Source: Thalassovita sp.
GTDB taxonomy: Bacteria > Pseudomonadota > Alphaproteobacteria > Rhodobacterales > Rhodobacteraceae
NCBI RefSeq assembly: GCF_963691685.1
Contig: NZ_OY829290.1
Location: 721,307-785,306 of the forward strand
Reading direction: 5' to 3'
Length of the DNA: 64,000 nucleotides
Shown: one piece after another, positions 531 through 15,061 of the stretch
Numbering within the stretch: position 1 is the stretch's first letter
Layout: every line of letters starts with the position of its first letter
Made by a program: the position numbers and the translations under genes
Notes under the pieces: model-generated
Told to the model about the DNA's origin: nothing
Databases searched by the model: none
Seen by the model: the letters and a program-made list of their open reading frames with translations, nothing else

Positions 531-959
531 ATGACCCAGGTCAAAACGGGTGACACCGTAGGCATTCACTATACCGGCACGCTGAAAGACGGTTCGGTTT
601 TCGACAGCTCCGAAGGGCGCGATCCGCTGACCTTTGAAGTGGGCAGCGGCCAGATCATCCCGGGCCTTGATAAGGCGCTGCCGGGCATGGCGGTTGGGGA
701 CAAGAAAACCGTCGAAGTGCCCGCGATGGAGGCCTATGGCCCGATCCAGCCCGGTGCCCGCCAAAGCCTGCCGCGCGCGGATTTCCCCGCCGACATCCCG
801 GCCGAAATTGGCCTGCAGCTGCAGATGCAGACCCCGGATGGCCAGGTTCTGCCAGTGACCATTGTTGATCTGACCGATGATGAGATCACCCTGGACGCCA
901 ACCACCCGCTGGCCGGCAAGGATCTGACCTTCGCGATTGAGCTGGTCTCGATCAGCTAA
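531..959 (+). CDS. FKBP-type peptidyl-prolyl cis-trans isomerase (SlyD/FkpB-like, with IF insert domain)
   Basis: 142 aa; FKBP fold motifs GDTVGIHYTGTLKDGSVFDSS and FEVGSGQIIPGLDKALPGM, with insert-in-flap segment. Confidence 0.85.
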   Translation: MTQVKTGDTVGIHYTGTLKDGSVFDSSEGRDPLTFEVGSGQIIPGLDKALPGMAVGDKKTVEVPAMEAYGPIQPGARQSLPRADFPADIPAEIGLQLQMQTPDGQVLPVTIVDLTDDEITLDANHPLAGKDLTFAIELVSIS

Positions 960-1017
960 GCGATTTTCTGAAGACAGAAGGGCGGGCTCACCGGCCCCGC
1001 CTTTTGCGTTTGGGCCA

Positions 1018-1986
1018 TCAGCCGTTGTTAATCCAAGCCTCGGCGTGGTCCATGATCTGTTTGCCGCTGTCGGTCATGTCGCCATGTTCATGGACGGTGC
1101 TGATCCCTTTAGCAAAATTTTCGCGGTCCTTTTCCGCCGCCAGCTGGGCCTCCGCGCGTTCTGCTTGCGTCAGCACGCCGCTTTGGGCGAGGGTTTCCAT
1201 CGCCAGTGCCATGCGCGCTGAAACGAGGGTTGCGTGATAGATGCCTTCCATCGGGCGGGGATCGATGCGGAGGGGGGATGTGTAAAGGTCGCTTTCGGGG
1301 TTTTTCACAAGAGGCTCGTCCCGCATCAGGCCAAACAGCAGGCTATGCCCAGCCTCATGTGCCAGCACCTCGGCGACGGCTAGCCGGTTTTTGTGGTGTT
1401 TGGGGTTCAGAAACAAAAGTCCCCAGAACTGAAAATGCGACGCGCCATCAAATTCGAATTTTGATCCCTTGGGGGCCTGTGCCAGCACAACTTGATGCAC
1501 GATGGCCCGGGTTTCGAGGTAAAGTGCCTCGAAGCCCTCACGCAGCAGGGCGAAGCCTTCGTTCAGCAACTGCGGAAAATCTGGTGCATCCTCATGCGGG
1601 AGGGGGGCAAATTCCGAACCTTCACCCAGGCGGTGGTTCAGCGATTGGTCCAAGGCGAGATTGTCGGTCGCGCCGCGATAGCGGACGATCAACTCGTCGC
1701 TGCGGGATGCTGCGTTCGAAAGACGTTGGGCCGTTTGAAGAGCGACTTCGCGATCGCCATCAATCAAAGCTTCGGTCAGGGTGTAATAGTCACCGAAAGT
1801 CTCCGCGGCCAGATGATCGCCAGCGTCTAAGCGGGCCAAAAGCGGTGACAGTGCATTGGATACGGCGGGCAAGGCGGCCTGACAGCGGTCCGCGATATGC
1901 CTGAGGCTTTGGGCCAAATCAGAGTGGCGGACGCGATCGAGATCTCGCGCCCGCTGGGCATCTGGCGCAAATGTGTAAGAAAACAT
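1018..1986 (-). CDS. HExxH-motif protein (LAHEAGHSLLFG); zincin-like peptidase or HExxH-type peptide-modifying enzyme, family uncertain
   Basis: 322-aa ORF with a single HEAGH motif about two-thirds of the way in; lower GC than flanking core genes; a small ORF lies immediately upstream on the same strand. Confidence 0.5.
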   Translation of the reverse strand: MFSYTFAPDAQRARDLDRVRHSDLAQSLRHIADRCQAALPAVSNALSPLLARLDAGDHLAAETFGDYYTLTEALIDGDREVALQTAQRLSNAASRSDELIVRYRGATDNLALDQSLNHRLGEGSEFAPLPHEDAPDFPQLLNEGFALLREGFEALYLETRAIVHQVVLAQAPKGSKFEFDGASHFQFWGLLFLNPKHHKNRLAVAEVLAHEAGHSLLFGLMRDEPLVKNPESDLYTSPLRIDPRPMEGIYHATLVSARMALAMETLAQSGVLTQAERAEAQLAAEKDRENFAKGISTVHEHGDMTDSGKQIMDHAEAWINNG

Positions 1987-2018
1987 TCGGTCGTCTTTTG
2001 CGTCTTAGGAGACCGGAC

Positions 2019-2204
2019 TCAGGATGCAGTCGCCAGTTTTATGCCTGGTTTCAGACCGATTTTGCTGCCCATTTTGGCACCCAGTGGACCCAGATCGGCG
2101 CTGGAAAACTGCTTGTGACCTTCGAATTCTGCCTGTTTTGCCACCACACGGTAGCCTAGCATATTGCCCAGATCGAGGTCGATTTTGGAGGTGGTGTCTT
2201 GCAT
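2019..2204 (-). CDS. small 61-aa Lys/Asp/Glu/Ser/Thr-rich protein; candidate RiPP precursor (hypothetical)
   Basis: Complete ORF in the 280-bp gap between the divergent HExxH and ATP-grasp genes, co-oriented with the HExxH gene; GC3 ~56%; weak SD (GGGG about 10 nt upstream). Confidence 0.3.
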   Translation of the reverse strand: MQDTTSKIDLDLGNMLGYRVVAKQAEFEGHKQFSSADLGPLGAKMGSKIGLKPGIKLATAS

Positions 2205-2266
2205 TGTGTCGGGCCCCGTTATTGATTTAAAAGCGACTTTTCAAAGGGATCGTAGGTCAGCTCGGT

Positions 2267-3244
2267 ATGCTATTCAACCCATCACGTGCTCAGCTATTTT
2301 TTGTGTGCGCGCATGACCATCGCTACACGGTTAAGCTGCCCGCGCAGCATTTGCAGCGCCAGAACGTCAGGTTCAAAACCATTCCGTATGAAGCGTTGTT
2401 TCGCGCGTCACGTTTGACCACAGCCAGCTACATTTTTTCAGACTTTGACCGGCTTTCCTCCACAGAACTGACAGCCGCCGCCGCAGTGTACCGCAAACTT
2501 GCCGCCGCAGGCGCCAAGGTGATCAATGACCCGGCCTTGGCGCTTAACCGTGATGACACCATTAGGCGGCTACATCAGTCGGGGTTGAGCGACTTTACTT
2601 GCTTCGGTCCGCGGTCTGGCGAAAAGCCCGAGAGGTTCCCTGTGTTCCTGCGCACGATCACCGGCCACCGGGGGGTGTTAAGCGATCTGCTGCACTCCGA
2701 GGAAGAGTGCGAGATCGCATTGAAACGCGCCATTTCTCAAGGGTATCCGCTGCATGATCTGGTGTTCATTGAATATGCGGCACAGCCTCATCCTGAAACC
2801 GGGTTTTTTCAGAAGCATTCGGCGTATTTTGTTGAGGACACCGTGGTGCCTTCAAACATCGTCAATGAACGCAACTGGGTGGCCAAGTTCGGTGAGGCAA
2901 ATTTAGCGACGCCAGAGCAATATGCGCAGGAACGGCGCCAAATGGATGACTACCCCCATGAGGCATGGGTGAGGGAGGTTTTTGCCTGCCTTGATGTTGG
3001 CTACGGACGCCTTGATTTCGGACTGGTTGACGGCAGGCCGCAAGCCTACGAGGTGAACACCAACCCAACGCTGGGACGCAGCGTGGATCATCCGAACCCT
3101 GACCGCGCGGTTGCGCTGCAGATCAGCCGTGACCGCATTTTGGAAGCGCTTGGCACTGTGGCCACCCGGCCGTCAGGCCGGCCGGTGTATGTTGGTGATG
3201 TGTTGACGCGGAAGGGGCCGCTGCGCCGTTTAAAGCGCCTGTGA
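2267..3244 (+). CDS. ATP-grasp family protein (ligase-like)
   Basis: 325 aa; C-terminal YEVNTNP resembles the ATP-grasp Mg-binding E-x-N motif (RimK LEVNSSPG, Ddl EVNTLPG); LVFIEY/FQKH central segment; GC ~50-52%. Confidence 0.5.
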   Translation: MLFNPSRAQLFFVCAHDHRYTVKLPAQHLQRQNVRFKTIPYEALFRASRLTTASYIFSDFDRLSSTELTAAAAVYRKLAAAGAKVINDPALALNRDDTIRRLHQSGLSDFTCFGPRSGEKPERFPVFLRTITGHRGVLSDLLHSEEECEIALKRAISQGYPLHDLVFIEYAAQPHPETGFFQKHSAYFVEDTVVPSNIVNERNWVAKFGEANLATPEQYAQERRQMDDYPHEAWVREVFACLDVGYGRLDFGLVDGRPQAYEVNTNPTLGRSVDHPNPDRAVALQISRDRILEALGTVATRPSGRPVYVGDVLTRKGPLRRLKRL

Positions 3245-3262
3245 CGGCCGGAATGTTATGGA

Positions 3263-3709
3263 TCAGGCCTTCCGGCGCAGTTTGATGACCACATCCACGG
3301 CGCTGATTTCGGCGCCTTCGGGTGGTTCGGGCAGTTGAATGATCTTCAGCTGCTCCGCCGGGGCATCGGTCAGCGCGCCGTCATCTTCCCAGAAGAAGTG
3401 GGGATGATCATGGGTGTTGGTGTCAAAATAGCTTTTTGAGCCATCTACCGTAACTTCCTGCATCAGACCCGCCTCACAGAAGGCGCGCAGGGTGTTGTAG
3501 ACGGTTGCCAGCGAGACGCTTTCGCCATTGTCGCGCACGGACGCAAACAGGCTTTCAGCGGTGACATGGCGATCCTGCCCGTCCCCGACCAGCAAAGTGG
3601 CGAGGGCGAGACGCTGCCTTGTAGGGCGGAGACCGGCGCCTGCCAGCCATTTGGAGCCCCTCTGGGTTGCCTCAGGCGATACTGTCATCGACTCGTGTCC
3701 TAGTTCCAA
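3263..3709 (-). CDS. irr: Fur-family transcriptional regulator, Irr-like (iron response regulator)
   Basis: Fur fold with HDHPH His cluster; divergent from fabA as seen for irr in alphaproteobacteria; true start may be the internal Met (MTVSPEAT). Confidence 0.6.
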   Translation of the reverse strand: MELGHESMTVSPEATQRGSKWLAGAGLRPTRQRLALATLLVGDGQDRHVTAESLFASVRDNGESVSLATVYNTLRAFCEAGLMQEVTVDGSKSYFDTNTHDHPHFFWEDDGALTDAPAEQLKIIQLPEPPEGAEISAVDVVIKLRRKA

Positions 3710-3951
3710 TATCCCTTTTTATAACGGTTCTAGGTCCGGATGTTCAAATGAAAACCATTTGCAACTGCGTTCCGCCATTTCCTGTGACCAGAATCCCGCT
3801 GCATTCCCTAGGGTGAGCTTTGCCTGATTTGTGGCACGCGCCGTGCCGCGCCGTTGCGGTGCGCCCAGACCCGCAAGGCTTGCGCCAGCGGCTTTTACGG
3901 TGCTAGAGGGGGCGGGAATGTAACAGAATTATCCCGGAGGGGGCGCCACGC

Positions 3952-4461
3952 ATGGCACAATATCCGAGCAGCTTTGACAAAGACGATCTTCTGAAATGCG
4001 CCCGAGGCGAGCTGTTTGGCCCCGGCAACGCCCAGCTGCCGGCCCCGCCGATGCTGATGATGGACCGTATCACCGAAATCTCGGAAGATGGCGGCGCCCA
4101 CGGCAAAGGCCACGTGCTGGCCGAATTCGACATCACCCCTGACCTGTGGTTCTTCGATTGCCACTTCCCGGGCAACCCGATCATGCCCGGCTGTCTGGGG
4201 CTGGACGGTCTGTGGCAGCTGACCGGCTTCAACCTTGGCTGGCGCGGCTGGCTGGGCCGTGGCTACGCGCTGGGCGTCGGTGAGGTGAAGCTGACCGGCA
4301 TGGTGCGCCCTGACCGTAAGATGCTGACCTACAAGATTGATTTCACCAAGGCGATCCAAACCCGCCGCCTGACCATGGGCGTTGCCGACGGTATCGTCGA
4401 AGCGGATGGTGAGGTGATTTATCAGGTGAAAGACATGAAAGTGGCCCTCAGCGAAAGCTGA
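3952..4461 (+). CDS. fabA: 3-hydroxydecanoyl-ACP dehydratase/isomerase FabA
   Basis: 169 aa; FabA hotdog motifs [20 protein letters not shown] and active-site His/Asp context. Confidence 0.9.
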
Positions 4462-4542
4462 TCGCAGAGGTTTCGTGATGCTTTACAGGCCGGCCCGCTG
4501 GGCCGGTCTGATCGTTTTAGGACCCCGCTGCAGGAGCGCCCC

Positions 4543-4791
4543 ATGACCCCGGAAGAAATCACCGCCTGCGTCAACGCCGCCTTTCCGCTGCCGTCGATCT
4601 TGTTTGTCATCGGGGCGCTGACCCTGGCCGCCTATCTGAAACGTAAATACCAGCTGACGCTTGCCCAAACCTTCAAGGCGATGGTTGGGGTTGAAAAGGT
4701 ACGCCACACCAAAGCCTCGGCCATTATCATGATGCTGACCTTGCTAGTGCCGCTTGGTCTTTGGCTGCTGCTGGGCCAGCGCTGCGGTTAG
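4543..4791 (+). CDS. small two-TM membrane protein (hypothetical)
   Basis: 82 aa, two hydrophobic helices, GGAG 8 nt upstream of ATG. Confidence 0.3.
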   Translation: MTPEEITACVNAAFPLPSILFVIGALTLAAYLKRKYQLTLAQTFKAMVGVEKVRHTKASAIIMMLTLLVPLGLWLLLGQRCG

Positions 4792-4935
4792 GCACCGTGT
4801 CACTATTGGCGCCATTAGCGCAGCCATTCCATGTTTTGTAACAGAGGTTTACAGCGGCATTCCGCTTGCCTTACCCTCTTAAACTAACGCCGAACGGATC
4901 GCGTCTGGCTGAGAAACGGCGGGGATGCGTGGCAG

Positions 4936-5715
4936 GTGCGAAAAATCTCTAGATGGGGACAGGTAGCGCGGCAGGTCGATTTGATCCGCTACATGTGGCG
5001 CACCAACGCGCCGCTCTGGGTGATCACGTTCTACCTGCGGCACAAGCTGTCAAACCAACTCTCCGGTGACAATCGGGTTTGGGCCAAAAAACGGGCCGCG
5101 TTTCGGGCGCAGGCCAAGTCTTTGGAGATCGATCAGGACTGGTTTTCGCGCAAACTGCCGATCTGGCTGCGGGCCTTCAAGGCGGTGGATCTGGACACTG
5201 AGGCACCGTTGAGCTGTCTGGAAATCGGCAGCTGGCAGGGGCTCTCAGCCCATTTCATGCTCACCACCCTGCCAAATGCGACGCTCACCTGCGTCGATAC
5301 ATGGGAAGGGGCGGATGAACATTTGGATAGACTTCGCGTCGACCAGCCCGCAATGCACCGGATTGAACAGAGCTTTGATCGCAACCTTGCCTCCTTCGCG
5401 GATCGGCTGACCAAGTTTCGCGGCACATCGCAGGCGTTTTTCAGTGGGGGAAATGCAGGACCCAAGTATGACCTGATCTATGTCGACGGCTCGCACCACG
5501 CGGAGGATGTGCTTTTGGATGCTATGGAGGCGTTTGATGTGCTCAAAAACGGCGGCTTGCTGATCTTTGATGATTATTTCTGGCGTTACTATCCCGACGC
5601 TTCTGACAACCCGGCAAGCGCGATCCATACCTTCCTGCGGCAGGAACAGCACCAGTTGGAGTTGATTTGCGTCGATCGGCAGGTCGTTGTGCGAAAACTT
5701 GAAAGTCTTGCGTGA
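4936..5715 (+). CDS. class I SAM-dependent methyltransferase (Methyltransf_24/O-MTase-like)
   Basis: GTG start; LEIGSWQG SAM-binding motif and DLIYVDGSH; inserted between fabA and fabB. Confidence 0.65.
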   Translation: MRKISRWGQVARQVDLIRYMWRTNAPLWVITFYLRHKLSNQLSGDNRVWAKKRAAFRAQAKSLEIDQDWFSRKLPIWLRAFKAVDLDTEAPLSCLEIGSWQGLSAHFMLTTLPNATLTCVDTWEGADEHLDRLRVDQPAMHRIEQSFDRNLASFADRLTKFRGTSQAFFSGGNAGPKYDLIYVDGSHHAEDVLLDAMEAFDVLKNGGLLIFDDYFWRYYPDASDNPASAIHTFLRQEQHQLELICVDRQVVVRKLESLA

Positions 5716-5836
5716 TCCGCGAGGGCAACGGAAACACCTGCCCCCTAAGCCACAGGTAAATGGGTTTCCCCAACCCACCTTGCACCTTCCCACCGCAATG
5801 CCCTACTAAGGCATAAGCTATGAAGGGAGTGCACGT

Positions 5837-7066
5837 ATGCGTCGTGTCGTCGTAACCGGCTTGGGCGTTGTTTCGTCCATCGGCAACAATGCAGAAGAGG
5901 TTCTGGCCTCGCTGAAGGCTGGCAAGTCCGGCATCACCGCCAATGAGGCCATGAAGGAACATGGGTTCCGCAGCCAGATTGCAGGCGACATCAAGTTGAA
6001 TGTCGCCGATCATGTCGACAAACGGACCCTGCGCTTCATGGGGCCCGGCGCGGCCTACGCCCATATTGCGATGCAACAGGCGATTGCTGATTCCGGTCTG
6101 GAAGAAAAAGAGATCATCAACCCGCGCACCGGTCTGGTGGCAGGGTCTGGTGGCCCGTCAACCTCGGCCATGTTGGCAGCGCATCAGACCGTGCTGAAGA
6201 CCGGCGCAACCAAACGGATCGGCCCGTTTGCGGTGCCCAAAACCATGTGCTCGACCGTGTCGGCAAACCTAGCGACGGCCTTCCAGATCAAAGGCATCAA
6301 CTACTCGATCACCTCGGCCTGTTCGACCTCACTGCACTGCATCGGCAACGCAGCCGAACAGATCATGATGGGCAAGCAGGATGTGATGTTTGCTGGCGGC
6401 GGTGAAGAGCTGGACTGGACCCTGAGCTGCCTGTTTGACGCGATGGGTGCGATGTCGTCGAAATACAACGACACGCCCGAGAAAGCCTCGCGCGCCTTTG
6501 ACGCAAACCGCGACGGGTTTGTGATCGGCGGCGGTGGCGGCATTGTGGTGCTGGAAGAGCTGGAACACGCCAAAGCGCGCGGTGCGAAGATCTACGCAGA
6601 AGTCACCGGCTACGGCGCCACCTCGGACGGTGCCGATATGGTGGCCCCCTCGGGCGAAGGCGGTGAGCGCGCGATGCGTGAGGCTCTGTCGACCTTGGCC
6701 GACGACCGCAAGGTCAGCTACATCAACGCACATGGCACCTCGACCCCGGTGGGCGATGTTGGTGAAGTGGAGGCGGTGCGCCGCGTCTTTGGCGAAGGCC
6801 AGACTCCGGTGATCTCTTCGACCAAATCGATGACTGGCCACAGCCAGGGCGCCACCGGTGCGCAGGAAGCCATCTACTGCCTGCTGGCGCTGGAACATGA
6901 TTTCATCATCCCGTCGATCAACGTCGAAACGCTGGATCCGGCGCTGAACCCGGCCGAGATTGCCACCGCGCTGGTCGAAAACGCGGGCCTAGATACGGTG
7001 ATGACCAACTCATTCGGGTTTGGTGGCACCAATGGGTCGATGCTGATGTCGAAATACCGCGACTAA
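5837..7066 (+). CDS. fabB: 3-oxoacyl-ACP synthase I FabB
   Basis: 409 aa KAS-I; active-site Cys in [10 protein letters not shown]; HGTSTPVGD and GHSQGATG motifs. Confidence 0.9.
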
Positions 7067-7091
7067 GCTTTGAAAACAGAGTTTTCAGATT

Positions 7092-7121
7092 GGGCGCCCT
7101 TCGGGGCGCTCTTTCTTTTTT
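7092..7121 (+). terminator. rho-independent terminator after fabB
   Basis: gggcgccc-ttcg-gggcgc hairpin followed by T-run. Confidence 0.6.
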
Positions 7122-7238
7122 CGGGCCTGCGGCCCGGTTCTTAAGTATTTTCAGAACATTGAAAGCGCCTTTCAACGATCCCTAAATACTCCCGCCGGAG
7201 GCGGCGCTGGCTTTCATCTGGATGCCACGCGCAGGGGG

Positions 7239-8159
7239 TCAGAACCATTGCCCCGGTTCCATCAGCCCAAGGTCCAGCAGCTGACGTGAATGCCATTCGA
7301 AGGGGGCCGAGTTGTGCCAGCGGAAACTGTCGATATCGAACTTGGAGCCCGGGTTGCGTTTCAGCGCCTTGGCGGTGCGGAACGAACAGATGGCCGCGGT
7401 CAGATTGTGGTGCCAGGGGCAGGCGTAGGTGTTGTATTCTTCGTCGTTGAAGGTGTGATCTTCACCAAGGCGCAGCTCTGGTTTGGCGCGGAAGAGGGAG
7501 ATCCGGTCGATCTTGCGCCGTTTGGCGGGGATGTGTTCCTCATAACGCCAGCGCAACCCGCCAAAGAAGTCCAGCTGGCGTTCTTTGGGGTGGTTGTGAT
7601 TGGCCGGATCGGGCCGTGCCAGCGCGTAATAGCCTGATTTGTCCAGATGCGCCGTGTCGAGGGAGACAGCATTGGGATGGCGTTGCAGGTTTTCAGCGTA
7701 GAGGTCGACCACATAGGTCAGCATGGAAAACCGCCGCTCTTCGGTGTGGAAGGCCAGCATTTCGCCAACGGTGCGGGTCTCACAGAACGGGTAGAACAGG
7801 TATTCCGCGTTGTAGCAGTAAAAGATCCACTGACCGATCGCGGCGTCGTTGATCTGATTGACGGCCTGCGGCACCGCGCCCTGCTGCAGGGTGTCAAAAC
7901 TGATCCGGTGGACGGTGGGTTCAACATCTTCGGCCAGAGCATATTCATCGGGCATGAAGACCAAAACGGTTGCAAAGCCCGTGTTCAGATGGTGGCGCAG
8001 GGTGGTGTCAATCTCGGCCTCATCTTCGGCAAAGACCAGCGCGATCGGCCCTTTGGCCAATGCGCCTTGGCTGGTTTTGAGAAACTCTGCCAAACTATTG
8101 TAGTGCATTGCTTGTGTCCTGCCTGCTTTGCGCCCAAACTCGGCCATATCGGGCTGCAT
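7239..8159 (-). CDS. conserved hypothetical protein
   Basis: 306-aa ORF with good GC3 bias; no motif I can assign. Confidence 0.45.
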
Positions 8160-8253
8160 TGCAAGTCACCCCCTTTGTGGTATAGGACGCCGCCTTGAAA
8201 CCAAGCCGCGCTGCATCAAGATAGAGCGCAACAGACCGGGCCAGGATAAGCGC

Positions 8254-9591
8254 ATGAGCGAAGCGAAAAATTGCGAGCCAAAGAAACTCTTCATCAAGAC
8301 CTACGGCTGTCAGATGAATGTCTATGACAGTGAGCGCATGGCAGAGGCGCTGGGTGGCAAGGGCTATATTGAGACCAAAAGCCCTGATGACGCGGATATG
8401 ATCCTGCTGAACACCTGTCACATCCGGGAAAAAGCGGCTGAGAAGGTTTATTCAGAACTGGGCCGTTTCAAGACGCTGAAAGCGGAAAAGCCGGACCTGA
8501 AAATCGGTGTTGCCGGCTGTGTCGCGCAGGCTGAGGGTGAAGAGATCATGCGCCGGCAGCCGCTGGTCGATCTGGTTGTGGGGCCGCAGGCCTACCACCG
8601 CCTGCCCGAGATGGAGGCCAAGACCCGCGCCGGTGAAAAGGCGCTGGATACGGATTTCCCCGAAGAAGACAAATTCGAGAAGCTGAAAAACCGCCCCAAG
8701 GCGCGCCGTGCCCCGGCGGCATTCCTGACCGTTCAGGAGGGCTGCGATAAGTTCTGCGCCTTCTGCGTGGTGCCCTACACCCGCGGTGCCGAAGTGAGCC
8801 GCCCGGTGGAACGTGTGCTGAATGAGGCGCGCGATCTGGTGGATCGTGGGGTGCGCGAAATCACCCTGCTGGGCCAGAATGTGAACGCCTACCACGGGCA
8901 GGGGCCGAAAGGCACCTGGTCGCTGGCCGAACTGATCTGGTCGCTGAATGAAATCGATGGACTGGAGCGGATCCGTTTCACCACATCGCATCCCAACGAT
9001 ATGGATGATGACCTGATCGCGGCCCATGGCGAGTGCAAAAAGCTGATGCCGTACCTGCATTTGCCGGTGCAGTCGGGCAGCGACAAGATCCTCAAGCGGA
9101 TGAACCGCAGCCACACCGCGGAAAGCTATCTACGGTTGATTGGACGGATCCGTGCAGCGCGTCCCGACATGCTGATCTCAGGTGATTTCATTGTTGGTTT
9201 CCCGGAAGAGGATGATCAGGACTTTGAAGACACCATGTCGCTGATCCGTGAAGTGAACTACGGCCAGGCCTTCAGCTTCAAATACTCGACCCGCCCTGGC
9301 ACCCCGGCAGCAGAACGTCCGCTGGTGGATGACGCTGTGGCGACGGAACGTCTGCACCGTTTGCAGGCCCTGATCACCGAACAGCAGCGCGCCATCCAGG
9401 ACAGCATGGTCGGGCGAGAAGTGTCGGTTCTGTTTGAAAAGGCGGGCCGGTTTGAAGGCCAGATGGTCGGCAAGTCTGAATATCTGCACGCGGTTCACGT
9501 GGCCAATGCAGGCATGCAGGTTGGCGAAATTGCCCGGGTGAAAATTGTCGAAAGCGGCAGCAATTCATTGGCCGGTGAGATCATCCGTTAA
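8254..9591 (+). CDS. miaB: tRNA-i6A37 methylthiotransferase MiaB
   Basis: Starts at internal ATG ([11 protein letters not shown]); TRAM and radical-SAM CxxxCxxC (CDKFCAFC) motifs; [11 protein letters not shown]0004 N-terminus. Confidence 0.9.
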
Positions 9592-9636
9592 GCCCCTGAT
9601 TGGCTTGGATTTACATCAGAGAATCTCTGACTTTTG

Positions 9637-9666
9637 AGGCCTGCCCCATCGGGGTGGGCCTTTTTC
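9637..9666 (+). terminator. rho-independent terminator after miaB
   Basis: ggcctgcccc-atc-ggggtgggcc hairpin plus TTTTT. Confidence 0.55.
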
Positions 9667-9906
9667 AGGTGGCGGTAAGGGGAAGTTTCACGCGATTTAC
9701 CCGCCGAATTGTCGCCCTGACCACTGCTATTAGTGTTCTTGATTGTCATTGTTTCCAAATCTTGTGCAATCAGCCAAGGTTTCTCCTTCCTTTAAGAGGG
9801 AGAAATGTTAAGCTTAACGAATAATTACTTTGTCGAAGCACCCTTTTCTGCTGAAACCTGGGGCGGCTTCGTGGGGACACGAAACATAAGGACAGGGCTG
9901 GCGAAA

Positions 9907-10473
9907 ATGATGACCAAAGCATTTCGTACTGCAATGGCTTGTGCTGTGGTGTCGGTTCTGGGCGTAACGTCGACAATGCAGTCGGCTATGGCGCAGCAAT
10001 CTACCACGGTGCGGAGCGAACGTTATATTCCAACCATTTGGATCGACCCGGACGGCTGTGAGCATTGGGTGATGGATGATGGCGCCGAAGGCTACATGAC
10101 ACCTCACCTGACCAAAGAGGGGCTGCCGGTCTGCCGTGATCTGAACCTCTGTGGCACCGTGAAAACTGACCAGCTGTTTGCAACCGACAGCTACCGGATC
10201 AATTCTGCTGGTCGTCAACGCTTGGCGGATTTCTTCAACTCGGCGTCGGCGCGGGCTTTTGTGATTGTTGGTCACACCGACAGCCGGGCCTCGGACAGCT
10301 ACAACATGAAGTTGAGCTATAACCGGGCCAACTCGGTGGCGAAAGTGGCCGCTGGTGTTGGGGCGCAGGTGATTGATGTGCGCGGCTACGGTGAGCGGAT
10401 GCCTGTGGCGTCAAACTCGACCGCGGCTGGCATGCAGAAAAACCGCCGCGTTGAAATCCTGTGTTTCCAGTAA
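9907..10473 (+). CDS. OmpA-family protein with N-terminal Cys-containing domain
   Basis: Signal peptide (MMTKAFRTAMACAVVSVLG); C-terminal OmpA-like peptidoglycan-binding domain (VGHTDSRASDSYNMKLSYNRANSV..NRRVEI). Confidence 0.75.
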   Translation: MMTKAFRTAMACAVVSVLGVTSTMQSAMAQQSTTVRSERYIPTIWIDPDGCEHWVMDDGAEGYMTPHLTKEGLPVCRDLNLCGTVKTDQLFATDSYRINSAGRQRLADFFNSASARAFVIVGHTDSRASDSYNMKLSYNRANSVAKVAAGVGAQVIDVRGYGERMPVASNSTAAGMQKNRRVEILCFQ

Positions 10474-10489
10474 CCGAGGGAGAGAGACT

Positions 10490-10804
10490 ATGACTTTGGT
10501 AAAAGCCACAATGGCCCTCGCAGTTGCTGGTCTGATGGCCGCCTGTACCACCGGTGGTCATGCCCCGGTGCAGGGGGATAAAACCCGCGACCGCGGCACC
10601 GACAAAAAGCACCTCAGCCAATTGGTGGCCGGCATTTGGGTTGACCCGAACGGCTGTGACCACTGGATTATCGATGATGGTGTGGAAGGCTACGCGGATG
10701 CGCGCCGTGACAAATACGGCAAGCCGGTCTGTTCCAACGTGGCACCGCCGGAAACGGCCACTGGCCCGTTCAAGGATGGCACCCGGATCTTCGACCCGCT
10801 GTAA
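10490..10804 (+). CDS. lipoprotein sharing the N-terminal domain of the upstream OmpA protein
   Basis: Strong SD (gagggagagag); lipobox LMAAC; IWVDPNGCDHWIIDDGVEGY..PVC matches IWIDPDGCEHWVMDDGAEGY..PVC in the OmpA protein. Confidence 0.6.
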   Translation: MTLVKATMALAVAGLMAACTTGGHAPVQGDKTRDRGTDKKHLSQLVAGIWVDPNGCDHWIIDDGVEGYADARRDKYGKPVCSNVAPPETATGPFKDGTRIFDPL

Positions 10805-10980
10805 AGCGCGCGACATTCCGAAAAGAACGCTAAGCCGCCGGTGCACAAACCGGCGGCTTTTCTGTGCCGGAACTGTCACAATTAGACACTACATCTTGCG
10901 GAGAGGGGGCGTGTTTGGCACCATTGGTCCTAGGCCCCCGACTCAAATTTTGGGATTTGACCTCAGCTAAGGAGATCTAT

Positions 10981-12006
<1,026 letters not shown>

Positions 12007-12112
12007 CCCGGTTGCGCCGCCTCCGGCGGGAGTATTTGAGGAACATTGAAAAGGGCGGCGGCCAGCGGGCTGTCGCCTTTTCTTGTGCGGGCAATCAGGA
12101 TATGGCGGGCCT

Positions 12113-12607
12113 ATGACTGTTGATGTGATCTTTGAAGATACACGCTGGGAGGCGGCCGGGCTTGCGCAACTGGCCGAGGTTGCCAGTGACGCGACCCTGC
12201 GCCATCTGGGATATGATCCAGAAGATTGGGAGCTTTGTGTGATGGGCTGTGATGATGCCCGGATTGCCGAGCTGAACGAAGAATTTCGCGATAAGGGCAA
12301 GGCAACCAATGTGCTGTCCTGGCCCTCAGAAGAACGGGGGGCTGCAGAAGATGGCGGCGCGCCGCTGGCCCCGGAAGGTCCCGACCCGGAACTTGGTGAT
12401 ATCGCCATTTCTTTTGAGACGTGCCAGCGTGAGGCCGAGGCCGCCGCGAAGCCGATGAGCGAACATTGCACCCATTTGTTGATCCATGCGACCCTGCATT
12501 TGCTGGGCTATGACCATATTCGTGACAAGGATGCCACGTTAATGGAGGCGATTGAGGTCGAAATACTTGGCAAAATGGGGTTTGCTGACCCATATAATGG
12601 GTCTTAG
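12113..12607 (+). CDS. ybeY: rRNA maturation endoribonuclease YbeY
   Basis: HxxxHxxGYDH zinc motif (HLLIHATLHLLGYDH). Confidence 0.85.
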   Translation: MTVDVIFEDTRWEAAGLAQLAEVASDATLRHLGYDPEDWELCVMGCDDARIAELNEEFRDKGKATNVLSWPSEERGAAEDGGAPLAPEGPDPELGDIAISFETCQREAEAAAKPMSEHCTHLLIHATLHLLGYDHIRDKDATLMEAIEVEILGKMGFADPYNGS

Positions 12608-12658
12608 CGGGGATCACCCCCGTGACAGATGAGTTCTGTTTGAATTTGGAAAGGTAAG

Positions 12659-13549
12659 ATGGGCGACGCACCTGAAGGCTCTTCTACGGCAGCGCACAGC
12701 GCGCAGCCAGAGAGCGACCCCCCGCAACCGGGGCTTTTGAAACGACTGTTCGGAGCCAAAGGCACGGCAGTGGCGCTGGAGGCTGAGGCCTCGGCAAATG
12801 GCCACGCCCACCCGCGCGGTGAACACCAGACATTGATGAACACTTTGGCGCGCTACCGCGTGCGTGAAGTGGCTATTCCCAAAGCGGATATTGTGGCGGT
12901 GCCGGAAAGCATCACCAAAGATGAACTGGTGCAGGTCTTCCGCGATACCGGATTTACTCGACTGCCTGTCTACAGCGGCACCTTGGACACCCCGCTGGGC
13001 ATGATCCACCTAAAGGACTTTGCCCTGCAGCACGGGTTTAACGGCGGCCAGAGCGAAGAGTTTTCGATGGCAGGCATGCTGCGTCCGCTGCTCTATGTGC
13101 CGCCGTCGATGTCGCTGGGGGTTTTGCTGCAGAAAATGCAGACGGAACGCCGGCATATGGCACTGGTGATCGATGAATATGGCGGTGTTGACGGGGTTTT
13201 GACCATCGAAGACCTGATCGAACAGGTTGTCGGTGAGATCGAAGATGAACATGACGCCGAAGAGGATCAGTTGTGGGTCGCTGAAAACCCCGGTCAGTAT
13301 CTGGCGCTGTCTAAAACCCCGCTGGACGAGTTTGAGGAGGAGATCGGCTTCTCCCTCACCGATAGTCCTGAGATCGACGAAGAAGAGATCGACACGCTGG
13401 GCGGTCTGGTCTTTGTTCTCTGTGGTCGGGTGCCGGTGCGTGGCGAAGTGGTGCAACACCCGGATGGTCATGAGATCATGGTGGTGGATGCCGATCCCCG
13501 CCGGATCAAGCGCCTGCGTGTGCGTCTGAAAACGGATGCAGGTGGGTAA
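12659..13549 (+). CDS. corC: HlyC/CorC-family transporter-associated protein (CBS pair plus CorC_HlyC)
   Basis: Two CBS domains and C-terminal CorC/HlyC transporter-associated domain; operon context. Confidence 0.8.
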   Translation: MGDAPEGSSTAAHSAQPESDPPQPGLLKRLFGAKGTAVALEAEASANGHAHPRGEHQTLMNTLARYRVREVAIPKADIVAVPESITKDELVQVFRDTGFTRLPVYSGTLDTPLGMIHLKDFALQHGFNGGQSEEFSMAGMLRPLLYVPPSMSLGVLLQKMQTERRHMALVIDEYGGVDGVLTIEDLIEQVVGEIEDEHDAEEDQLWVAENPGQYLALSKTPLDEFEEEIGFSLTDSPEIDEEEIDTLGGLVFVLCGRVPVRGEVVQHPDGHEIMVVDADPRRIKRLRVRLKTDAGG

Positions 13550-13552
13550 CGG

Positions 13553-15061
13553 GTGCTGGCCGCTGCGCTGACACGATATGGGGCGGCGCAGGGCCTGTAT
13601 GGCTTTGCGCTTTCGGTTCTGGCAGGCGGGATCACCGCGCTGGGGCAGGCGCCGCTGAATTTGTGGCCGCTGGCGTTGCTAGGGCTGGCGCTGGGGCTGT
13701 TGCGTATGCAGGCCGCAGGCGAAGCTAAAGCAGCGTTCTGGCGTGGCTGGGGTTTTGGTCTTGGGTATTTTGCGCTGGCCCTCAGCTGGATCGTTGAGCC
13801 GTTTCTTGTCGATATTGCCCGGCACGGCTGGATGGCGCCCTTTGCCTTGTTCTTTATGGCCGGGGGGCTGGCGCTGTTTTGGGGCGCCGCCGCTGCCGTG
13901 GCGCAGCGCTTGGGGGGAGCCCCGCTTGCCTTGATTGCGACCTTGGCTGCTGCTGAACTGATGCGCTCCTACCTCTTTACGGGGTTTCCGTGGGCGCTGA
14001 TCGGCCATCTGTGGATCCCGACACCCGTTGCGCAATGGGCCAGTCTGATTGGTCCACATGGTCTGACCCTATTGGCGCTGGCCGTTGCAACGGGGCTGGC
14101 GCACTCGGTGCGACATGTGACGGGGGCTATGGCAACGCTGTCAGCAATTGCGCTGTTTTGGCTGGGTGGGGCCTATCTGGCGGGTGAGCCCCAGGACCTA
14201 AAGGGCCGGCCGGTCGTGCGGTTGGTGCAGCCCAATGCGCCACAGCATCAGAAATGGGATCCGGCCCATATCCCGGTGTTCTTCCGCCGTCTGATTGAGG
14301 CAACCCGCGCCGCACCACGCCCGGATCTGGTGATCTGGCCCGAAACATCTGTCCCTGTGTCGCTGGATAGGTCCGAGGAAACGCTGCAGGTGATGGCGCA
14401 GGCGGCGGGCGAGGTGCCGGTTGTCTTTGGCATCCAACGTTGGGAGGGCCGGCAGATTTATAACTCAGCAGTCCTGATGGATGGTCTGGGCCAGGTCACA
14501 AATATCTACGACAAGGCGCATCTGGTGCCCTTTGGGGAATACGTGCCCTTTGGCGATCTGTTGGGCCGCCTGGGCATTCACGGCATGGCCGCGCGTGACG
14601 GGGATGGGTTTTCCGCCGGTCCGGGGGCGCAGTTGATGCCGTTGGGGCCCCTGGGGCGTGCCCTGCCGCTGATCTGTTATGAGGCAGTGTTCCCAAATGA
14701 TGTGAACGCGGCAGCAGAGCGCCCGGACCTTTTGATGCAGCTGACCAATGACGCCTGGTTTGGCCAGATCTCGGGTCCTTACCAACATTTGGCGCAGGCC
14801 CGCCTGCGCGCGATTGAGCAGGGGCTGCCGATGGTGCGCGCGGCAAATACCGGGGTTTCAGCGGTTATTGATGGCAAGGGCCGCGTGATTGCGCAGTTGG
14901 GGCTGGGGGAAACCGGTCATCTGGACCATGCTCTGCCGCCAGCATTGCCCGGCACACTTTATACCCGAACCGGTGATTATCTTGCCTTGGTTGCTATCAT
15001 GGGGCTGTTTCTTGCCGTTATCACACTCAGGCGCTTCCCAAAGCGGCGTTTTGCAGATTGA
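13553..15061 (+). CDS. lnt: apolipoprotein N-acyltransferase Lnt
   Basis: N-terminal polytopic membrane domain plus C-terminal nitrilase/CN-hydrolase domain (WPE..., LICYE, NDAWFG). Confidence 0.85.
   Translation: MLAAALTRYGAAQGLYGFALSVLAGGITALGQAPLNLWPLALLGLALGLLRMQAAGEAKAAFWRGWGFGLGYFALALSWIVEPFLVDIARHGWMAPFALFFMAGGLALFWGAAAAVAQRLGGAPLALIATLAAAELMRSYLFTGFPWALIGHLWIPTPVAQWASLIGPHGLTLLALAVATGLAHSVRHVTGAMATLSAIALFWLGGAYLAGEPQDLKGRPVVRLVQPNAPQHQKWDPAHIPVFFRRLIEATRAAPRPDLVIWPETSVPVSLDRSEETLQVMAQAAGEVPVVFGIQRWEGRQIYNSAVLMDGLGQVTNIYDKAHLVPFGEYVPFGDLLGRLGIHGMAARDGDGFSAGPGAQLMPLGPLGRALPLICYEAVFPNDVNAAAERPDLLMQLTNDAWFGQISGPYQHLAQARLRAIEQGLPMVRAANTGVSAVIDGKGRVIAQLGLGETGHLDHALPPALPGTLYTRTGDYLALVAIMGLFLAVITLRRFPKRRFAD

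Follow-up and report, generated by a model that had tools for sequence, protein, structure and literature searches.

A co-inherited precursor peptide, HExxH enzyme and ATP-grasp ligase that probably define an undescribed family of enzyme-modified peptides

We analysed a 64,000-nt stretch of the Thalassovita sp. contig NZ_OY829290.1 (the window), in which three adjacent genes encode a 61-aa peptide, a 322-aa protein with a HEAGH motif and a 325-aa protein with the ATP-grasp-type motif YEVNTNP (Table 1). All coordinates are those of the window unless a locus label (Lnnn) is given. The 61-aa open reading frame (ORF) and the downstream 322-aa ORF lie on the same strand, 32 nt apart, and the gene for the 325-aa ligase is transcribed divergently from this pair. 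An earlier interpretation, made from the letters of the DNA alone (the sequence-only reading), had described these three ORFs and their motifs, and their positions, sequences and orientations were as claimed. The 280-bp intergenic region that it assigned to the divergent genes was found to contain the 61-aa ORF, and the non-coding spacer measures 62 bp, a length that is identical in another locus (L001). Scans of positions 900-3900 for promoters, terminators and Rfam families yielded neither a convincing promoter consensus nor an Rfam element in this spacer, and the PADLOC defence models gave no match. None of the three proteins matched a Pfam family.

Table 1 Features of the three-gene locus in the window
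Feature	Position	Strand	Remarks
Predicted aKG-HExxH-type peptide beta-hydroxylase, 322 aa	1018..1986	-	HEAGH at residues 210-214; RefSeq WP_321831227.1
Predicted precursor-peptide gene, 61 aa	2019..2204	-	RefSeq WP_321831229.1, annotated 'hypothetical protein'
Putative leader recognition segment, residues I8-V20, IDLDLGNMLGYRV	2145..2183	-	Most conserved block of the 97-peptide alignment
Putative core, four phi-G-x-K tetrapeptides (LGAK MGSK IGLK PGIK), residues L41-K56	2037..2084	-	K-K spacing of the family
Divergent spacer between peptide gene and ligase gene, 62 bp	2205..2266	.	Read from sequence
Predicted ATP-grasp ligase of an unnamed clade, 325 aa	2267..3244	+	YEVNTNP at residues 261-267; RefSeq WP_321831230.1, 'hypothetical protein'

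An NCBIfam search assigned residues 142-314 of the 322-aa protein to TIGR04267, with 102.1 bits against a cut-off of 40. The AlphaFold2 model, built on 26 homologs, had a predicted local distance difference test (pLDDT) value of 95.7. When it was compared with the PDB using Foldseek, the best match was the HExxH domain of ChlBH (8s5f; template-modelling score up to 0.72, E 1e-10), followed by SjiH, and no other PDB match was significant. A profile of the HExxH family also matched the ChlH sequence, and the HExxH motif and a downstream SP(L/W)R.D.RP..G..HA block are common to both. In the 26 homologs, H210, E211, H214, S237-P-L-R240, D242, R244-P and H251 are invariant. Taken together, the TIGR04267 score, the modelled ChlBH fold and the shared invariant motifs place the protein in the Fe/alpha-ketoglutarate (aKG) HExxH dioxygenases (TIGR04267 / IPR026337). 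The protein is thus not the peptidase that the sequence-only reading had considered, and the family that is matched is associated with peptides that are made ribosomally and modified after translation (RiPPs). The RefSeq name of the protein is likewise 'aKG-HExxH-type peptide beta-hydroxylase'. In RiPP precursors, the characterised members act as beta-hydroxylases on His, Asp, Phe, Gln and Pro; their substrates include runs of consecutive Gln, and one of them also cuts the backbone oxidatively (PMC12636437, PMC13060819). The family has been recognised only since 2024, and which reaction a member performs is not yet predictable from its sequence (PMC13060819).

The peptide was followed across 80 genomic loci encoding relatives of the HExxH protein (224 species-level genomes matched the HExxH search in all), which together with the window locus make 81. 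Crude clustering of the longest ORFs produced clusters of antisense 'shadow' ORFs in these GC-rich genomes and needed careful reading. The small-ORF family was defined here by an iterative profile seeded with the 61-aa sequence of the window and, as a control, this profile was run against 22,107 six-frame segments (1.07 Mb) comprising the 80 loci and the whole window. We obtained 98 matches. Directly upstream of the HExxH gene and on the same strand lay 94 of these, and the other four were extra copies in the same clusters. At least one member of the peptide family was present in all 81 loci, from about seven phyla, so that the small ORF is indeed conserved beside homologs of the enzymes. Ten loci had two to four copies of the peptide gene within 700 nt upstream. 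In L031 (Histidinibacterium lentulum, 3600-7000), six tandem, diverged precursor genes with short cores (a total that includes two further copies farther upstream) and two paralogous ligase genes lie upstream of a single HExxH gene. L021, another HExxH locus of this genome, has no ligase in its vicinity. The peptide genes of the window and of Thalassovita mediterranea differ by 17 synonymous and 14 non-synonymous codon changes, and their nucleotide differences are distributed 13/6/23 over the codon positions, i.e. mostly at the third.

The peptides have a median length of 56 aa. In the alignment of 97 of them, the most conserved block was the N-terminal consensus (I/V)xLDxxKLLG(F/Y)(R/K)(L/I). 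Successive lysines were spaced by four residues in 288 cases and by any other single distance in at most 28. Gly occupied K-2 in 72% of cases and K+2 in 67%. The number of GxK units per peptide ranged from 0 to 12, with a median of four. Position x of G-x-K is free (Asp stands there in only about 8%), and Gly and Lys are the only conserved residues in the 97 cores. No Asp or Glu occurs in the last 20 residues of 39 of these cores or anywhere after the leader in six of them, and the ligase is kept in those loci. The peptides are basic, with a median net charge of +4 after the leader. Their C-termini are varied: the final residue may be A, S, G, R, V, D or another, and 0-23 residues follow the last Lys. 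Of the 97, 3 end in Glu. In the window peptide, the acidic residues E26, E28 and D37 lie upstream of the Lys repeats. These features describe a bipartite precursor, with a putative recognition leader and a repeated core, which in some loci is encoded in multi-copy arrays, as is generic for RiPP cassettes.

A homolog of the 325-aa ligase was adjacent in 72 of the 80 loci, in at least four gene orders. It was divergent and upstream, as in the window, in 49 loci, directly downstream on the same strand in 12, downstream with a MOP-family exporter gene (PF13440) in between in nine, and convergent in two. No 325-aa ligase was seen in the remaining eight, five of which have an incomplete flank. One tight operon, in the order peptide, HExxH, MOP, ligase, is found in L086. 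Pairwise identities of the HExxH proteins and of the ligases correlated across loci (r = 0.88, and 0.70 for pairs below 60% identity), compared to at most 0.16 after shuffling of labels. The association of the three genes is far beyond chance. At two loci, L040 (Sulfitobacter, 7940-9760) and L027 (Marivita, 7987-9816), the place of the 325-aa ligase beside the HExxH gene is taken by an ATP-grasp protein of ~606 aa, which resembles the G domain of cyanophycin synthetase and N-acetylglutaminylglutamine synthetase. Chemistry of the same kind seems to have been recruited here independently. Two of the three peptides in these loci end in Glu, an excess over the whole family (hypergeometric P ~0.002) that was noticed post hoc and is based on tiny numbers. 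The ~600-aa ORFs that adjoin the HExxH gene in L039 and L021 were also considered as ligases and rejected, being an RlmJ-type methyltransferase and an RTX protein, respectively.

The cassette was found in Alpha-, Beta- and Gammaproteobacteria, Verrucomicrobiota, Gemmatimonadota, Planctomycetota, Bacteroidota and one Synechococcus, and is common in marine Rhodobacterales and freshwater Burkholderiales. HExxH proteins from Akkermansiaceae are 53% identical to that of the window, and those of some Rhodobacterales 41-44%. Since these identities do not follow taxonomy, they suggest that the cassette has spread laterally as a unit. Together, these observations support the view that the trio is a co-inherited RiPP-type cassette of one precursor and two enzymes.

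For the ligase, NCBIfam gave only a sub-threshold Ddl match and no family above cut-off. Neither rimK_fam (TIGR00768) nor LysX (TIGR02144) matched at E<=1, and a profile of the ligase matched the LysX sequence only at E 0.008. The structural model, built on 34 homologs (pLDDT 91.7), has a confident ATP-grasp fold, in agreement with the assignment that the sequence-only reading had based on the E-x-N motif. Structure comparison ranked ArgX (16.9), LysX/ArgX (16.8), RimK (16.6) and GshB (15.1) as nearest, ahead of the graspetide cyclases PsnB (14.5), CdnC (13.5), MdnC (12.6) and AMdnB (11.3). Identity was at most 17% to all compared structures and 13-17% to RimK/LysX. A housekeeping RimK, GshB or Ddl identity was rejected in view of the missing family-model matches, the identity of at most 17% and the strict tie of the gene to the peptide/HExxH pair. 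The invariant PVFLR (R129) aligns with VVLKP of LysX, HRG with GSWG, the EY hinge with EYV, and W204 with the LysX Trp. The segment GRxDF...YE(I/V)NTNP aligns with GRADF...LEVNTAPG of Ddl, the acyl-phosphate/Mg site. With these Mg/ATP motifs intact, the ligase looks catalytically competent.

The ligase family comprises 1,366 representatives (at 50% identity) with E<=1e-30, including a more distant clade without HExxH. Members of this clade (~35% identity, ~365 aa) are not encoded next to an HExxH gene and suggest further roles for the family. In L089 (729-3415), ligase homologs with three tandem homologous ATP-grasp domains (277 aa + 618 aa) occur without HExxH or peptide genes. A ~368-aa member of the clade in L085 (7001-8107), also without these partners, is flanked by an SDF symporter and an MFS transporter, with genes for family 2 glycosyltransferases (GT2) close by. 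The small ORFs that adjoin the ligase homologs in L089 and L085 had no features of the peptide family. Fusions to TPR domains are common among the ligases, and a locus with such a fusion (L088) keeps the HExxH gene and the peptide.

A survey of Pfam families among the neighbouring genes of the loci showed no universal fourth gene, protease or ABC exporter. The recurrent leuA, S11 peptidase and IclR genes in Burkholderiales reflect synteny of that lineage. In a minority of loci the cassette includes an exporter gene (MOP in nine, MFS in L066 and ABC in L077), and GT2 genes adjoin several cassettes. In L087 (435-3859), which has the divergent layout of the window, the ligase carries a C-terminal GT2 fusion (683 aa); here the repeats of the peptide read MIGxKP, and the HExxH protein reaches 90 bits with TIGR04267. 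In L044 (Gemmatimonadota, 8966-9943), the gene immediately after the ligase encodes a sulfotransferase. In L066 (Thioalkalivibrio, 7537-8991), that place is taken by an MFS transporter gene, and one more precursor copy (6306-6485) stands between the ligase and the HExxH gene. In L077 (Alcaligenaceae, 7001-14417), the HExxH gene is parted from the ligase by a pair of GT2 genes, an ABC transporter and a UDP-glucose dehydrogenase, another link of the cassette to sugar chemistry. The added glycosyltransferase and sulfotransferase genes are consistent with a new hydroxyl group acting as a handle.

In the window, the trio is flanked by an FKBP-type slyD gene (531-959) and by a Fur-family irr gene (3263-3709) followed by fabA, the same core genes that the sequence-only reading had recognised. 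That reading also gave all three genes a low GC content (~50-52%) and argued from it for acquisition as a unit. The value holds for the peptide gene (52.2%). The HExxH gene (58.5%) and the ligase gene (57.1%) are close to the 57.4% of the whole window, with slyD, irr and fabA at 60-62%. Composition therefore provides no evidence for recent acquisition, and horizontal transfer read from GC was rejected. Beyond the trio, the irr-fabA-fabB block is unusually interrupted by a gene for a 259-aa class I SAM methyltransferase (PF13578, E 4e-19; 4936-5715), which stands between fabA (3952-4461) and fabB (5837-7066), and a hydrophobic 82-aa ORF is present at 4543-4791.

We propose that the genes form a three-gene RiPP-type cassette in which the repeat lysines would be hydroxylated and an ATP-dependent ligation would then take place on the same core, and we give this explanation an even chance of being right. 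The 61-aa product would consist of an N-terminal recognition leader and a C-terminal core of four phi-G-x-K repeats. The HExxH enzyme most likely hydroxylates the repeat lysines successively, at the beta-carbon by analogy with the characterised members. Lysine is its most likely target, and would be a new substrate for the aKG-HExxH family, because only Gly and Lys are conserved in the core, Gly has no beta-carbon, and the Lys repeats are kept in two loci that lack a ligase (L021 and L043), which ties the repeats to the HExxH enzyme. On the same core, the ligase most likely makes an amide or ester bond at the expense of ATP, with the lysine epsilon-amine or the new hydroxyl as nucleophile. Because the repeat encodes no carboxylate partner, a free acid or the C-terminus of the peptide itself would have to supply it. 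The product may be an exported, polycationic, multiply decorated peptide that is further glycosylated or sulfated in some lineages. We infer lysine as the hydroxylated residue, the partners that the ligase joins and the export of the peptide. With regard to polarity, we favour only slightly a ligase that activates an external acid and uses it to acylate either the lysine amine or the newly formed hydroxyl. PylC, acting on Lys N-epsilon, and PGM1, acting on peptide N-termini, are ATP-grasp precedents for the acylation of an amine with a free acid. A more specific version is that of a new RiPP class with iterative Lys beta-hydroxylation in phi-G-x-K repeats, in which a non-graspetide ATP-grasp enzyme would add an external carboxylic or amino acid without cyclising, and lineage-specific O-glycosylation or sulfation would yield an exported, collagen-like 'hydroxylysine-decorated' polycationic peptide. 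We put this version forward tentatively and regard it as doubtful.

Several observations weigh against the proposal. Lysine is not among the reported aKG-HExxH substrates, which are His, Asp, Phe, Gln and Pro (PMC13060819). At least two loci with full 7-kb flanks, L021 and L043, have no ATP-grasp gene of either type nearby. There is no conserved protease in or near the cassette and none in the window, which leaves leader removal unexplained, and the modification is predicted here from genes and models. Furthermore, the kinship of the ligase with RimK, LysX/ArgX and GshB and the CphA-like substitute favour a reaction at the C-terminus over one at the lysine side chain, because these nearest relatives and the substitute activate a peptidyl carboxylate. 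As is generally known, RimK, LysX/ArgX, GshB and CphA-like ligases activate the carboxylate of a peptide or protein and add a free amino acid to it. In such a RimK/LysX-like scheme, the HExxH enzyme would hydroxylate lysines and the ATP-grasp enzyme would activate the peptide C-terminus, to which it would add one or more amino acids or which it would close onto a lysine amine, with no decoration of side chains by an external acid. The Glu-terminated peptides beside the CphA-like ligases, few as they are, point in the same direction. RimK, LysX and ArgX, however, act on a C-terminal Glu of a protein substrate (S6, LysW), and the peptides studied here have basic cores that hardly ever end in Glu. 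The wide variation of C-terminal residues and tail lengths in the main family argues weakly against a reaction at that end. The low identity to RimK/LysX and the lack of a rimK or LysX family match also speak against it, and we consider a C-terminal reaction unlikely, if worth keeping in mind.

The sequence-only reading had followed the logic of graspetides, in which the ATP-grasp enzyme would make Lys/Ser/Thr-Asp/Glu lactams or lactones in the core and the HExxH enzyme would act as a tailoring hydroxylase. An enzyme with an ATP-grasp fold does adjoin the precursor, and the window peptide has its three acidic residues ahead of the Lys repeats. There is also a precedent in corallotide for repeated Lys cyclisation combined with 2-oxoglutarate (2OG)-dependent hydroxylation, in the order of Lys-Asp isopeptides first and hydroxylation after (PMC13097080). 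Membership nevertheless fails because acidic residues of the core are not conserved. No conserved acidic position stands in register with Thr/Ser/Lys acceptors, Asp is rare at x of G-x-K, and cores that lack Asp/Glu retain the ligase. The ligase itself lies outside the graspetide synthetase lineage (ATP-grasp Pfam/TIGRFAM models; MdnB/C, PsnB, CdnC) and matches no ATP-grasp Pfam or NCBIfam model used for finding graspetides, and the largest graspetide survey, with 21,584 members, makes no mention of HEXXH or TIGR04267 in its text or 112 supplementary files. A true graspetide is improbable on this evidence. Somewhat more improbable still is a scaffold or carrier peptide of the LysW or pearlin type, on whose lysine amines the ligase would load a small acid for the HExxH enzyme to oxidise, with subsequent release of a small molecule. 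The LysW-dependent ligases ArgX and LysX come closest in structure, each peptide offers several identical loading sites, and no protease or dedicated leader-processing gene was found, but the cassette has no conserved hydrolase or release enzyme, the embedded exporters of three families fit a peptide product, and tandem arrays of diverged precursors such as that of L031 are typical of RiPP products. Finally, the small ORF might be a regulator or accessory of enzymes that act on another molecule, such as a glycan or envelope component. Polysaccharide-type genes do recur (the MOP flippases, GT2 genes and the UDP-glucose dehydrogenase of L077), and the distant HExxH-less ligase clade is found among GT2 and transporter genes. 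Against this, the HExxH family is known only with peptide substrates (PMC12636437, PMC13060819), the peptide is the most constant partner in the cassette, its leader and repeat conservation and multi-copy arrays are hallmarks of a substrate, and fusions of the ligase to the peptide-binding TPR are common, which makes a non-substrate role very improbable. It is therefore probable that the trio represents a so far undescribed family of enzyme-modified peptides and not a graspetide.

In the literature searched, no paper paired HExxH enzymes with ATP-grasp ligases, contained the leader motif or described this subfamily, which leaves standing the earlier suggestion of an undescribed RiPP class, now as a conserved cassette. 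New here are the precursor family, the partnership into which a known hydroxylase family has entered, and the unnamed ATP-grasp clade. The cassette represents a large and phylogenetically wide subfamily of standalone aKG-HExxH members with a clearly defined putative cognate substrate. If the proposed chemistry is correct, Lys joins the list of aKG-HExxH substrates, ATP-grasp ligases gain a non-cyclising role in RiPP biosynthesis, and a function is provided for an ATP-grasp family without a Pfam or NCBIfam model. The product may matter in the habitats of the marine Rhodobacterales and freshwater Burkholderiales, among which the cassette is frequent.

Among known systems, the aKG-HExxH RiPP hydroxylases ChlBH, BpmH, PflC/PosC and PesO share the TIGR04267 family, the fold of the ChlBH HExxH domain and a leader-bearing precursor encoded alongside, and PflC modifies consecutive identical residues one after another, which is what we also propose here. 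In the literature searched, the partners of these enzymes are radical SAM, MNIO or Asn-synthetase-like enzymes and never an ATP-grasp enzyme, which is the partner in the present cassette. Their precursors are unrelated to the LDxxKLLGFRL leader and G-x-K repeats, and Lys would be a new substrate. The graspetides (microviridin MdnB/C, plesiocin PsnB, chryseoviridin CdnC and corallotide) resemble the cassette in having a conserved leader, an ATP-grasp ligase and a Lys-containing repeated core, and corallotide combines repeats, Lys and a 2OG hydroxylase (PMC13097080). They differ in that our core has no conserved Asp/Glu donor and our ligase lies outside the graspetide models, structurally nearer to RimK/LysX; moreover, the corallotide hydroxylase is a cupin, whereas the one described here belongs to the HExxH superfamily. 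RimK and the LysX/ArgX-LysW systems likewise combine an ATP-grasp enzyme with a small protein or peptide substrate (about 55-60 aa) whose gene is close by. LysW and S6 present an acidic C-terminal Glu, in contrast to the basic peptide with its variable C-terminus, the family models do not cover our ligase, and no lysine or arginine biosynthesis genes are near the cassette. PylC and PGM1 are lower structural matches than RimK/LysX, and neither has a leader-bearing repeat peptide or a hydroxylase. The homocitrulline RiPP was considered as a related system and found to be unrelated, as it uses a carbamoyltransferase and not an ATP-grasp enzyme. By analogy only, the cassette recalls collagen lysyl hydroxylase and the hydroxylysine glycosyltransferases. 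The folds are unrelated, the repeat period is four here and three in collagen, the expected site is the beta-carbon rather than the delta-carbon, and glycosylation genes, whose role is predicted, occur in only a minority of cassette loci. In both cases, Lys in Gly-rich short repeats is, or would be, hydroxylated by an Fe/aKG enzyme and then O-glycosylated, a parallel that is reflected here in the GT2 genes adjacent to several cassettes and fused to the ligase in L087.

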